Part shown: positions 250 to 2,400 of the stretch, piece by piece
How the letters are laid out: every line of letters begins with the position of its first letter
Position numbering within the stretch: the stretch's first letter is position 1
DNA from: a virus
Taxonomy: Duplodnaviria; Heunggongvirae; Uroviricota; Caudoviricetes
DNA length: 4,213 bases
IMG/VR virus record: IMGVR_UViG_2529292882_000010
Direction: 5' to 3' (one strand)
Translations under genes and position numbers: made by a program
Notes under the pieces: model-generated
Database searches by the model: none
Told to the model about the DNA's origin: nothing
What the model saw: the letters and a program-made list of their open reading frames with translations, nothing else

Positions 250-450
250 ATGACTAAAGAAGAATTTGTCTCTTATATTTTTGATAAAACGGTTGAAATG
301 TATGCTGCTACTCACGAGTCCTGTAATCCCCTGAATAAACCAGAGGGGAAAGATGATTTCGACAAAATTTACTGCTTCCTGGAGGACCGCTATATCAAAA
401 GGTTAGAGGACGCAGGGATCAAACCCCCAGTGAAGTCACCATTGTCCTGA
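250..450 (+). CDS. hypothetical small protein (66 aa), AT-rich accessory gene
   Basis: Seen in sequence: ATG at 250 in frame with the 163..450 ORF, preceded by AAGGA (238-242) at 7 nt spacing. The 163..249 extension has no RBS and is probably not translated. The region is markedly more AT-rich than its neighbours. No recognisable family. The 3' end overlaps the convergent ORF 419..784 by 32 bp, so one of the two may be mis-called. Confidence 0.45.
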   Translation: MTKEEFVSYIFDKTVEMYAATHESCNPLNKPEGKDDFDKIYCFLEDRYIKRLEDAGIKPPVKSPLS

Positions 451-784
451 GAACTTGCAGGACGTCATGATCGTAACTTCCATCCAAACCGCGACGGCGA
501 ATTGCTTCTCGTATTATCGGAAGCAGCTCGCTGGAAATCTCGGTGCATATTTCACCTGATAATACGCCTGGTTCAAGTGAGAATATTGGTGAACTTATGG
601 TCCTGGTCTCGACAGTTTCAGAGTCAGTGTCAACATTATAAAGCTCAACGAAAGCGGTCTTGATTTTCCGGGCCAGATCTTTTGCTGGCTCGCTTTCAAT
701 GTCTTTCCCGATTTCTCGCAGCACAGAATGCAATGTATGAGCTGCTGTTTTCTGTACATCAGGCGGTAAATCTTTAAATTCCAT
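419..784 (-). CDS. hypothetical protein (121 aa), second gene of a leftward two-gene unit
   Basis: Seen in sequence: ATG (complement of 782-784) lies 11 nt downstream of the stop of ORF 796..1002 on the same strand, suggesting co-transcription. Only a weak G-rich RBS. No recognisable family or motif. Confidence 0.5.
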   Translation of the reverse strand: MEFKDLPPDVQKTAAHTLHSVLREIGKDIESEPAKDLARKIKTAFVELYNVDTDSETVETRTISSPIFSLEPGVLSGEICTEISSELLPIIREAIRRRGLDGSYDHDVLQVLRTMVTSLGV

Positions 785-795
785 CTTTAACCCCG

Positions 796-1002
796 TTAGC
801 CGTTAGATTTTGCCGAACTGGAAAGTGCCTGTTTAAACTCACTGAAGCTGAGAGCTTCTTCGCCTTCGGCAAGGCCTTCGAAGTATTCTTCGTAAGCCTT
901 TTCCATGATTGCGTCGAAATCCATGTTGACCTCATTTCCCCTTAACGCCGGGGTAGCGGAACAAAAACCTGCTGCATAGTTAAAGTTGAACCCTGCCGTC
1001 AT
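796..1002 (-). CDS. small acidic hypothetical protein (68 aa from ATG at 1002; 42 aa if initiated at internal ATG at 924)
   Basis: Seen in sequence: two candidate starts. ATG at 1002 has GAGG about 10 nt upstream. Internal ATG (complement of 922-924) has GAGG at 5 nt spacing, arguably the better RBS. The C-terminal 42 aa are strongly acidic. No arginine-rich N-terminus, so not an N-type antiterminator. Function unknown. Confidence 0.45.
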   Translation of the reverse strand: MTAGFNFNYAAGFCSATPALRGNEVNMDFDAIMEKAYEEYFEGLAEGEEALSFSEFKQALSSSAKSNG

Positions 1003-1105
1003 GTTCTTACGCCTCGGGCTGGCTACTTAACCCCTGACCACTACCTGGTAACTCGAAGTATTGCCCGGCATTCTGTGGGGTGGAGTGGGTTGGTATGAAA
1101 GGAAG

Positions 1106-1154
1106 GATACCCATGGGTATCTAAAAAGTAAATACCCATGGGTAATTTTTTTTT
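1106..1154. promoter_or_regulatory. candidate OL-type operator pair: two copies of palindrome TACCCATGGGTA, then a T9 tract
   Basis: Seen in sequence: perfect 16-bp palindrome GATACCCATGGGTATC at 1106-1121 (core 1108-1119) and a second TACCCATGGGTA core at 1133-1144, centres 25 bp apart, followed by T9 at 1146-1154. Same TACC/GGTA half-sites as the three sites in the divergent region at 1630-1680. Inference: repressor binding sites. The second palindrome plus T-run could also act as a weak intrinsic terminator on the + strand. Confidence 0.55.
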
Positions 1155-1189: not shown

Positions 1190-1609
1190 TTATGATGCGT
1201 TTTGTGCTTTCTTTTTACGGATTTCTTCGTAGATCATATTGTAATACTGTTTTTTCTCTTCAAGAGTTTTTAATAAGTTATCCGCTTCACTTTCTGGCAG
1301 TTCGTCTAAGAGATCTAAAAAAATACGTTGTCGTGGCGTTAGAACCCTTGTTTCATAATTGGAGGCTGTGTTCGTTGATGATGAAACGATACCATCCATC
1401 CATCCTCGGGGTAACCCAAAGGACTCTTCGATAATCTCCACCATATCATCAGCGATCCGTTTTTTTCCCTTTTTCCCCTCTGGGTACAACATTCTTGATA
1501 CATAAGAAGGCTCGCGACCGATTTTTCTGGCTACGTTAACCGCTTTACCATCGCATTTCTCATCACGAATTTTGATGAGTTGCTGTCGTCTAAATTCATA
1601 TTTGTCCAT
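1190..1609 (-). CDS. prophage immunity repressor, short Cro/CI-type HTH protein without S24 peptidase domain (RacR-like by position)
   Basis: Seen in sequence: 139-aa ORF divergent from a cro-like gene across a 100-bp operator-bearing intergenic region. The N-terminal segment KAVNVARKIGREPSYVSRMLY fits a helix-turn-helix, and the C-terminal region is charged and coiled-coil-like. At 139 aa it is too short to carry a LexA/CI-type autocleavage domain. No Shine-Dalgarno upstream of the ATG. Confidence 0.8.
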   Translation of the reverse strand: MDKYEFRRQQLIKIRDEKCDGKAVNVARKIGREPSYVSRMLYPEGKKGKKRIADDMVEIIEESFGLPRGWMDGIVSSSTNTASNYETRVLTPRQRIFLDLLDELPESEADNLLKTLEEKKQYYNMIYEEIRKKKAQNAS

Positions 1610-1615
1610 AGGTAA

Positions 1616-1685
1616 ATAATAGATGCGATTACCGCAAGGTAAACAACCTGCAGGTATTGACTTTTGTTTACCTGTGGGTATTCTT
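1616..1685. promoter_or_regulatory. divergent OR-type control region: three TACC-N4-GGTA operators with candidate pR and pRM
   Basis: Seen in sequence: TACCGCAAGGTA (1630-1641), AACCTGCAGGTA (1645-1656, with perfect inner palindrome ACCTGCAGGT) and TACCTGTGGGTA (1669-1680). Rightward candidate promoter: -35 TTGACT (1657-1662), -10 TATTCT (1679-1684), overlapped by the third operator. Leftward candidate promoter on the - strand: -10 TATTAT (complement of 1616-1621), -35 TTTACC (complement of 1638-1643), overlapped by the first operator. Promoter calls are inference from consensus matching only. Confidence 0.55.
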
Positions 1686-1709: not shown

Positions 1710-1991
1710 ATGGAAGAATTAAGAATATTTCTCAATTCTCTTTCGTCAGATGAACAGCGTATGTTTGCATGCGAGTGTGGTACCAGCATCGGTTATCTAA
1801 GAAAGGCATTGAGTAAAGGTCAGGTGTTAGGGGCATCGTTATGTGTCCTTATTGAGCGAGCCAGTAATGGTGAAGTTACACGTCAGCAACTAAGGCCTTT
1901 TGATTGGATGAATATTTGGCCCGAGCTGGAAGATACCAAAACGTTAACACAACCACTTTCTAGGAGCTTGATTCATGAAAATCAAGCATGA
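1710..1991 (+). CDS. ydaS: Cro-like HTH protein (YdaS-like)
   Basis: Seen in sequence: 93-aa ORF, ATG at 1710 with AAGGAG (1699-1704) at 5 nt spacing, first gene rightward from the operator region. Contains the HTH-like segment GTSIGYLRKALSKG and the motif VTRQQLRPFDW, which I recall as typical of YdaS/Cro-like prophage proteins. Overlaps the next gene by 17 bp. Symbol assigned by family resemblance and gene order, not by verified identity. Confidence 0.7.
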   Translation: MEELRIFLNSLSSDEQRMFACECGTSIGYLRKALSKGQVLGASLCVLIERASNGEVTRQQLRPFDWMNIWPELEDTKTLTQPLSRSLIHENQA

Positions 1992-2400
1992 ACACATCCG
2001 CATGGCGATGAGTGCCTGGGCGCATCCGGACGGTGAAAAAGTTCCGGCAGCTGAAATAACCCGGGCTTATTTTGAGCTGGGTATGACATTCCCGGAACTG
2101 TATGACGACAGCTATCCGGAAGCCCTAGCTCGCAATACTCAGAAAATTTTCCGCTGGGTAGAGAAAGACACTCCTGATGCGGTTAAAAAAATTCAGGCAC
2201 TGTTACCAGCGATCGAAAAAGCAATGCCACCTCTGCTGGTGGCCCGAATGCGCAGTCACAGTTCAGCCTATTTTCGGGAGCTGGTGGCGACGCGGGAACG
2301 ATTGGTGAGAGACGCTGATGATTTTGTCGCAGTGGCGATCGCTGGTTTCAACCAGATGAATCGTGGTGGTCCGGCGGGAAATGCCGTGGTGATGCACTAA
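1975..2400 (+). CDS. ydaT: YdaT-like protein (proposed CII-like regulator family of Rac-type prophages)
   Basis: Seen in sequence: 141-aa ORF, ATG at 1975 with AGGAG (1962-1966) at 8 nt spacing, overlapping the cro-like gene. The N-terminus MKIKHEHI and the length match my recollection of the YdaT family, and the racR-ydaS-ydaT-like order supports it. From memory only; needs a homology search. Confidence 0.7.
   Translation: MKIKHEHIRMAMSAWAHPDGEKVPAAEITRAYFELGMTFPELYDDSYPEALARNTQKIFRWVEKDTPDAVKKIQALLPAIEKAMPPLLVARMRSHSSAYFRELVATRERLVRDADDFVAVAIAGFNQMNRGGPAGNAVVMH

Follow-up and report, generated by a model that had tools for sequence, protein, structure and literature searches.

Short prophage repressors without a Peptidase_S24 (S24) domain are already a documented class, which includes DicA of the Qin prophage of Escherichia coli K-12, GfoR and GtgR of the Gifsy prophages, PaaR2 of CP-933P and Rep of Salmonella phage SPC32H. 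DicA contains no Ala-Gly bond; it is relieved by the antirepressor Rem, whose gene lies elsewhere in Qin at a distance of 3.6 kb and which derepresses a DicA target 165-fold (PMC10448788). The DicA/DicC switch also changes state on its own in about 1% of cells, independently of Rem and RecA, the rate being unchanged in a recA mutant, and it responds to urea and heat (PMC10448788). The Gifsy repressors (136 amino acids, aa) are not cleaved either; LexA-controlled antirepressors inactivate them, also in trans between prophages, and DicA and RacR were grouped with them by the same authors (PMC3121763). SPC32H Rep is disassembled by a tetramer of Ant, according to the part of PMC9638917 that describes Kim 2016, and the ant gene, preceded by a LexA box, is 14 kb distant from rep in the SPC32H genome. 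The antirepressor route has been described as widespread among enterobacterial prophages (PMC7380047). PaaR2, which has no peptidase motif and is insensitive to mitomycin C, makes up a bistable switch together with YdaS (PMC8630535). Here we analyze an immunity (CI-type) repressor gene located at 1190..1609 on the minus strand of IMG/VR virus record IMGVR_UViG_2529292882_000010 (Caudoviricetes), of which a stretch of 4,213 nucleotides, in the following called the window, was available. Its product of 139 aa, named 'hypothetical protein' in RefSeq, is an uncharacterised member of this known class, and its novelty lies in the combination of modules from which it is built.

The open reading frame (ORF) is divergent from a cro-like gene, lies between two clusters of predicted operators and matches PHROG 5736 'transcriptional regulator' over its full length (E 4.7e-70). 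A Pfam search of the 139-aa protein returned no family at E≤1, neither Peptidase_S24 nor any helix-turn-helix (HTH) model. This blank is informative because, in relatives with the same N-terminal domain, the same library picks up Peptidase_S24 with E values of 1e-17 to 6e-23. Ala-Gly and Cys-Gly dipeptides and the serine motif G-[DT]-S-M were found nowhere in the 139 residues, and in the S24-form controls a WVxAG-type ('WVSA/G') cleavage context was present in five of six and a GDSM-type serine motif in all six. When a remnant of the domain was sought with the S24 halves of these relatives in all six frames of the window, the best tblastn match reached E 0.26 over 14 aa.

An AlphaFold2 model based on 37 homologs (mean predicted local distance difference test score, pLDDT, of 84.9) consists entirely of helices, at residues 3-18, 23-30, 34-40, 54-63, 92-102 and 106-138, without any beta strand. 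Residues 77-87 form a disordered linker with pLDDT below 50. The protein can thus be divided into a predicted N-terminal DNA-binding domain of the SPC32H-Rep/mEp043-cI type, which is outside Pfam coverage (codons 1-75, 1385..1609, minus strand), a flexible linker without an Ala-Gly or Cys-Gly site (codons 76-87, 1349..1384, minus strand), delimited by pLDDT, the motif check and the point at which similarity to the S24 forms stops, and a helical tail of the DicA/Tritos type made up of a helix, an LPxxE turn and a long helix (codons 88-139, 1193..1348, minus strand). The tail has a charge content of 38% and is presumed to serve as a module for dimerisation or cooperativity.

An earlier reading of this stretch, made without database searches and here called the original prediction, had described a head that binds DNA, followed by a charged helical tail, in a protein too short to hold an S24 domain as well. 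This build was confirmed: the frame is exactly 1190..1609 on the minus strand, the helices are reproduced by AlphaFold2, and the Peptidase_S24 profile check that it had proposed gave no Pfam match at E≤1. Since the S24 domain, the cleavage dipeptide and the catalytic motif are all missing, RecA-stimulated self-cleavage should not be able to inactivate the protein; as far as sequence and predicted structure allow, this route is excluded and must be considered very unlikely. The view that such cleavage is improbable and that induction needs another route therefore holds.

The N-terminal module appears to belong to a DNA-binding family for which there is no curated Pfam model. SPC32H Rep (198 aa; PDB 5d50/5d4z) has an N-domain homologous to residues 1-75, the profile alignment stopping at Rep residue 117. 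Rep resembles the window repressor in this domain, in its TACC...GGTA half-sites and in the lack of S24, but differs in its C-terminal part, where residues 92-198 form an HTH_3-like tetramerisation domain instead of a DicA-type hairpin ending at residue 139, and in its operators, which have an N5 spacer as opposed to N4 in the window; in SPC32H the TACC-N5-GGTA repeats lie between rep and cro. The sole Pfam HTH_3 match of Rep is found at residues 105-150, in the C-terminal 'tetramerisation' half (locus L022, 34336-34490).

A search of 5.8 billion proteins revealed two populations of relatives. The first consists of short proteins of 135-145 aa that match over the full length and are blank in Pfam. 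The second comprises dozens of 'LexA family' proteins of 221-242 aa with PF00717, which are 64-85% identical and align over the first 55-73% of the repressor only. The alignment to these S24 forms breaks sharply past 'GWMDGI', at about residue 75, and the linker of the window repressor is unrelated to their cleavage region. An exhaustive representative search gave 703 clusters with the N-terminal module; in the best 142 of these 703, Peptidase_S24 was present in 32 and most others were Pfam-blank. Coliphage mEp043 cI (228 aa, S24 at 104-204) has a DNA-binding domain that is 65% identical and contains an identical REPSYVSRMLYPEGK stretch. This protein and the 'LexA family' repressors of Salmonella, Klebsiella, Pantoea and Edwardsiella have a DNA-binding domain 65-85% identical to that of the window repressor and the same TACC-N4-GGTA operators, but they also carry Peptidase_S24, the Ala-Gly site and the GDSM motif and are therefore expected to be cleavable in a RecA-dependent manner. 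In the searchable literature we found no characterisation of the mEp043 immunity system. Matches of phmmer to the Z-alpha domain of ADAR1 (E about 0.08) were judged to be generic winged-helix noise.

The tail has a different origin. The last 46 residues are 33% identical to the C-terminus of DicA (BLASTP, E 1e-7), including the LPESE turn. This similarity does not extend to full-length membership in the DicA family, as the repressor reaches 24.1 bits in the NCBIfam DicA model NF007257, for which the cut-off is 101, and aligns with model positions 79-131 only, and HTH_3, detected in DicA itself at E 1e-16 as a control, is absent. Phage Tritos and three relatives encode a CI of likewise 139 aa with a classic Xre HTH_3 head and a tail 72% identical to that of the window repressor. 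On the DNA level the tail-coding positions 1190-1306 are 76% identical to Tritos cI and represent the sole island of identity within the immunity cassette. Judged by these homologies, the repressor is a chimera of an SPC32H-Rep-type head and a DicA/Tritos-type tail. The comparison with DicA (135 aa) shows the same mixture: both proteins are short, non-cleavable and without an Ala-Gly bond (PMC10448788), and both adjoin a cro analogue and stand upstream of a PL operon of the DUF1391/ydfB/dicB type, but DicA has a classic Xre HTH_3 N-domain whereas that of the window repressor belongs to an unrelated family invisible to Pfam, and the DicA antirepressor Rem is without a homolog in the prophages carrying the cassette. 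More tentatively, a single DNA-binding domain and operator system (TACC-N4/5-GGTA) may circulate among enterobacterial temperate phages joined to at least three interchangeable C-terminal 'induction modules', namely an S24 domain as in mEp043, the Ant-targeted tetramerisation domain of Rep as in SPC32H, and a hairpin of the DicA type; we regard this wider picture as less likely than not.

The distribution of the operator motif fits the homology of the head. The 12-bp palindrome TACC-N4-GGTA occurs seven times in the window against an expectation of 0.93, and none of 200 shuffled sequences reached seven. Five of the seven copies fall into the two intergenic regions flanking the repressor gene, at 1630, 1645 and 1669 upstream and at 1108 and 1133 downstream. 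A consensus promoter scan, which was run independently of the pattern search, placed a PR-like promoter (TTGACT-16-TATTCT, 1657..1684, plus strand) ahead of the cro-like, ydaT-like and replication genes and a PRM-like promoter (TTTACC-16-TATTAT, 1616..1643, minus strand) ahead of the repressor gene. The predicted right operators (OR) are arranged around both: TACCTGTGGGTA (1669..1680) lies in the spacer of the PR-like promoter and overlaps its -10 box, AACCTGCAGGTA (1645..1656, one mismatch) abuts the -35 boxes of both divergent promoters, and TACCGCAAGGTA (1630..1641) overlaps the -35 box and spacer of the PRM-like promoter. The -10 box of the latter ends 6 nucleotides ahead of the repressor ATG and there is no Shine-Dalgarno sequence, so that a leaderless repressor mRNA would be implied, for which the lambda cI and paaR2 mRNAs are precedents (PMC8630535).

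Downstream of the repressor gene, two predicted left operators (OL), both reading TACCCATGGGTA and located by pattern search and sequence comparison, lie at 1133..1144, abutting the -35 box of a putative PL promoter, and at 1108..1119, in its spacer and -10 box. This promoter (TTTACT-17-TATCCT, 1104..1132, minus strand) was recognised by comparing the PR and PL cores; with 8 of 12 matching positions it is below the threshold of the scanner. Its construction is that of the PR-like promoter, with an operator, the site at 1108, over the -10 box.

A corresponding layout is found at all homologous repressor loci examined. In the S24-form Salmonella prophage L004 two sites lie upstream of the repressor gene and a downstream pair is spaced 26 bp apart; the Klebsiella-type element L007 has a pair upstream and a downstream pair 25 bp apart; and cI of phage mEp043 is accompanied by three upstream sites and a downstream pair 25 bp apart. 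The spacing of the window OL pair (1108/1133) is 25 bp. No other evidence speaks as strongly for recognition of TACC/GGTA sites by residues 1-75 as this conservation across loci, and the analysis thereby ties a DNA-binding family invisible to Pfam to a specific operator half-site. The predicted operators and promoters together reproduce the OR/OL logic of lambda. Divergence from the cro-like gene and the five flanking predicted operators also support the immunity-repressor identity proposed originally: from its sequence context, the protein is the CI-type repressor of an exchangeable lambdoid immunity cassette.

How would such a repressor be relieved? According to the mechanism we consider most probable, repressor dimers mediated by the tail would occupy the TACC-N4-GGTA operators and block PR, and with it the cro-like, ydaT-like and replication genes, as well as PL, while the repressor would autoregulate its own leaderless transcript as in lambda. 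Derepression would come about by protein-protein antagonism, exerted by a small antirepressor encoded outside the window, possibly by another prophage and in trans, on the model of Rem and DicA, Ant and SPC32H Rep, or GfoA/GftA and the Gifsy repressors. Superimposed on this could be a RecA-independent flip of a bistable switch between the repressor and the Cro-like protein, either stochastic or driven by stress, comparable to DicA/DicC and PaaR2/YdaS. The antirepressor is preferred by analogy, since both modules of the repressor derive from repressors that are under antirepressor control. We assign a probability of roughly 0.5 to the combined mechanism of a CI-type repressor relieved by an antirepressor and, in addition, by a RecA-independent flip.

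The original prediction had noted that no antirepressor gene is visible in the window, and indeed none is recognisable among its ORFs: searches of Pfam, NCBIfam and PHROG yielded no annotated antirepressor family, only three small ORFs of unknown function. A scan of the window for LexA boxes found none; as a control, the scan recovers the boxes of sulA and of SPC32H ant (17/20 for the latter).

Several further results weigh against the proposed antirepressor. No Rem homolog was found by tblastn in the carrier loci L003, L011, L012 and L013 (best E 0.31), a homolog of SPC32H Ant was absent at E≤1 from the cassette-carrying prophage loci, and the annotated products of five cassette-carrying prophages include no antirepressor. 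The small ORFs of the intact prophage match PHROGs of unknown function only, none of them phrog_340, to which Rem belongs, and the apparently intact prophage L012/L013 contains no LexA box scoring at least 13/20. The common tail is no proof of sensitivity to Rem, which might contact another part of DicA. The cassette was not found in any of 50,697 phage records. Most of the examined carriers are defective with a frameshifted integrase, and a functional induction pathway may be absent from them altogether. Finally, operator binding, tail dimerisation and promoter function are all inferred computationally. Since neither an antirepressor homolog nor a LexA box before a candidate gene was detected, the induction route stays inferred. 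Antirepressors are small, diverge fast and are able to act in trans, and the absence of a BLAST match is therefore weak evidence.

One candidate was examined and dropped. A conserved ORF of 90-92 aa (phrog_1212) occupies the 'rem slot' upstream of DUF968/ydfU at L012 28148-28420, L011 25016-25288, L003 27226-27498 and L019 (Tritos) 38197-38475. It is present in Tritos and in every carrier, but also in 61 phage records including N15, Gifsy-2 and mEp237, and its presence does not track the type of repressor. As a widespread gene of the nin region that is outside the PHROG of Rem and not homologous to Rem, it was no longer considered. Two other observations were made in the same prophages. A LexA-like box, TACTGTAAAAATATCCAGTT (16/20), occurs in the prophage of the mtfA locus at L011 27852-27871, L020 22853-22872 and L021 22870-22889; it is placed where a DNA-methyltransferase gene, downstream of the Q-like gene, is annotated to start, and not at an antirepressor gene, and the methyltransferase may be an SOS-controlled gene of the late region. 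In the carrier prophage L015 a 284-aa protein with Phage_ASH and Phage_pRha domains is encoded at 4924-5778 in the PL operon, between the repressor gene and dicB. Proteins with a Rha domain are in some cases annotated as antirepressors.

The locus examined here may also have no dedicated inducer at all. The repressor and the Cro-like protein would then form a bistable switch that flips stochastically or under general stress such as temperature, urea or stationary phase, and the repressor would be kept mainly to silence harmful prophage genes (dicB-type division inhibitors, replication genes, regulators of the YdaS/YdaT type) in an addiction-like manner. Because an antirepressor was not found and the cassette is absent from the phage records, this bistable switch or locked silencer is a serious rival, which we nevertheless rate as less probable than the antirepressor mechanism. 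The missing antirepressor homolog and the missing LexA box before a candidate antirepressor gene speak for it directly. So do two precedents: PaaR2/YdaS, with the same YdaT-type right arm, is bistable, insensitive to mitomycin C and without a known antirepressor (PMC8630535), and DicA/DicC flips without Rem or RecA (PMC10448788). RacR, moreover, is essential in K-12 (PMC5700377, PMC5700373).

The distribution and state of the carriers bear on this explanation in both directions. Of 5426 complete E. coli genomes, 822 (about 15%) carry the cassette, a frequency that, set against its absence from phage records, fits a silencer. Three carriers represent one defective lineage at the mtfA/tRNA-Ser locus. 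Its integrase is frameshifted and it has accumulated many pseudogenes, and yet the repressor, cro-like, ydaT-like and dicB genes are still intact, which likewise fits a silencer. One carrier, however, strain 720632 (L012/L013), harbours an apparently complete lambdoid prophage between potB and potC, and a temperate phage is expected to have an induction route; Tritos and its relatives are viable phages with the same tail; and both modules come from repressors controlled by antirepressors.

Nor does the repressor seem strictly indispensable everywhere. Alignment of intact and frameshifted alleles identified an A7 homopolymer of the coding strand, in a KKGKK loop (1460..1466, minus strand), as a hotspot of +1 frameshifts. 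The allele with one additional A (A8) was seen in L015, L016 and L017, three assemblies that differ in their flanks and have intact ydaS-like, ydaT-like and O-like genes; it could reflect real slippage, pseudogenisation or a homopolymer sequencing error. Further truncated or frameshifted variants (P0018, P0029, P0030, P0033) were found in public assemblies, and several of the disruptions are independent. Disrupted alleles next to intact neighbours argue against strict essentiality. This also qualifies the suggestion that the locus is effectively addictive, which had been extrapolated from Rac. The premise is accurate for Rac itself, where the repression of ydaS/ydaT makes RacR essential (PMC5700377, PMC5700373), although the reading of YdaS and YdaT as toxins is disputed in favour of Cro and CII equivalents (PMC5917428, PMC8630535, PMC9986795). 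What remains of addiction is plausible but generic: as long as PL and PR are there to transcribe dicB-type and replication genes, a cell should suffer from losing any prophage repressor.

Inactivation of the repressor by a separate protease, either a host enzyme of the Lon/ClpXP type or a phage metalloprotease of the ImmA/IrrE type, seems improbable. ImmA cuts ImmR and IrrE cuts DdrO, both repressors composed of an HTH and a helical tail. Tritos, which has the same CI tail, encodes in its nin region (L019 36945-38090) a metallo-endopeptidase of the ImmA/IrrE type that also has an XRE domain, and the predicted disordered linker at residues 77-87 would be accessible to a protease. However, no ImmA/IrrE-type gene is annotated in the five cassette-carrying prophages, fold matches to DdrO and ImmR are generic Xre-HTH matches, a degradation signal is not recognisable from the sequence, and in the literature consulted no report of such cleavage was found for repressors of the DicA type.

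Cleavage during the SOS response after all, by an unrecognised protease fold or by a cut in trans through a co-resident S24-type CI or LexA, is far less credible still: S24 proteins whose N-domain is 64-85% identical are frequent among enterobacteria and could co-reside, but the repressor has neither the domain nor the scissile bond nor the serine motif, its model is all-helical, and its linker does not resemble the region cut in the S24 forms.

The neighbouring genes define the locus further. DNA comparison delimits an exchangeable cassette at about 1100-1968 that contains OL, the repressor gene, OR and the cro-like gene; homology with a prophage that has another cassette breaks off at 1099 and picks up again at 1970, and the right boundary can be placed at about 1963-1970. 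The cro-like gene of the YdaS family (1710..1991, plus strand) belongs to PHROG 35, with PF15943 below threshold, and its product matches the PDB 'Cro' proteins 8c7k/8co2 at E 1e-10. Outside the cassette follows the gene of a YdaT-family CII equivalent of the CP-933P type (1975..2400, plus strand; PF06254; PHROG 163 'CII-like'), whose product is near-identical to PDB 3c4r (E 1e-87) and close to 8bt1, the CP-933P YdaT (E 6e-79), and only 33% identical to K-12 YdaT. An O-like replication gene lies downstream of it. A predicted YdaT operator of the OM type, found as an exact match, TTGATTCATGAAAATCAA (1968..1985, TTGATT-N6-AATCAA), spans the end of the cro-like coding region together with the ydaT-like ATG. 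In CP-933P the OM/PRE position is likewise the ydaS/ydaT junction, with the same YdaT motif (PMC9986795). The operator at 1968-1985 coincides with the right recombination boundary of the cassette (1963-1970). Judged from these matches the right arm of the locus is of the CP-933P type and not of the Rac type.

PaaR2 of CP-933P (E. coli O157:H7) is accordingly a close parallel in organisation. It is CI-like, without a peptidase motif and translated from a leaderless mRNA (PMC8630535), and it has the same neighbours, a CII equivalent of the YdaT type and the OM site (PMC9986795). It is set apart by its published operators, which are GTTTAGTAA-type repeats (PMC8630535) as opposed to TACC-N4-GGTA, and by its neighbours, as it is followed by the toxin-antitoxin pair paaA2-parE2, of which there is none in the window: the downstream ORFs 796..1002 and 419..784 gave no match to ParE or an antitoxin in Pfam and PHROG. 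An arrangement resembling paaR2-paaA2-parE2 was seen in Salmonella locus L004, where a ParE-family toxin gene and a 95-aa partner (4733-5298) lie directly downstream of the S24-form repressor gene.

To the left of the cassette, ORF 796-1002 (minus strand, 68 aa) matches the N-terminus of DUF1391/ydfA-type proteins (phrog_37620) with residues 1-28 and ydfB (phrog_2061) with residues 26-68, and its positions 798-924 are 98% identical to Qin ydfB DNA; it looks like a deletion fusion. The adjoining PL leader region (937-1097) is 88-95% conserved in Rac and in several prophages and phages whose immunity cassettes are unrelated (L018, Tritos). It seems to be a shared recombination flank, and we pose it as a question whether it also has a nutL-like role. 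L018 had been considered as a near-isogenic S24 counterpart and was rejected on account of its unrelated cassette.

RacR resembles the window repressor, as do GfoR and GtgR, in being short and uncleaved in SOS (PMC3121763), the Gifsy proteins being compared by description; among the loci examined none resembles the Gifsy antirepressor locus, in which a LexA box adjoins a dinI homologue on the downstream side of the replication genes. The label 'Rac repressor' given in the original prediction nevertheless has to be abandoned: neighbours of the YdaS/YdaT families and about 160 bp left of the cassette (937-1097) that are 88% identical to Rac DNA would agree with a RacR ortholog in a Rac immunity region, but BLASTP against K-12 RacR gives E 2.3 over 7 residues and thus no sequence similarity, the Rac immunity region has no DNA match, the YdaT-like protein sides with 3c4r and 8bt1 and not with K-12 YdaT, and head and tail point to SPC32H Rep/mEp043 cI and DicA, so that this identity is refuted with hardly any residual doubt.

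Together with its relatives the repressor forms a natural domain-swap series, in which one DNA-binding domain with its operators is joined to an S24, a Rep-type or a DicA-type C-terminus. With such a series one could ask directly if the choice of induction pathway depends on the C-terminal module alone. If the modular picture is true, it is this module and not the immunity specificity that decides on the inducing signal; a prophage that is not SOS-inducible could provide stable immunity against SOS-inducible relatives with common operators, and antirepressors of one class would find a portable receiver in the DicA-type tail. In Shiga toxin-producing and other pathogenic E. coli, which prophages answer to SOS-inducing antibiotics bears on the expression and transfer of phage-borne genes.

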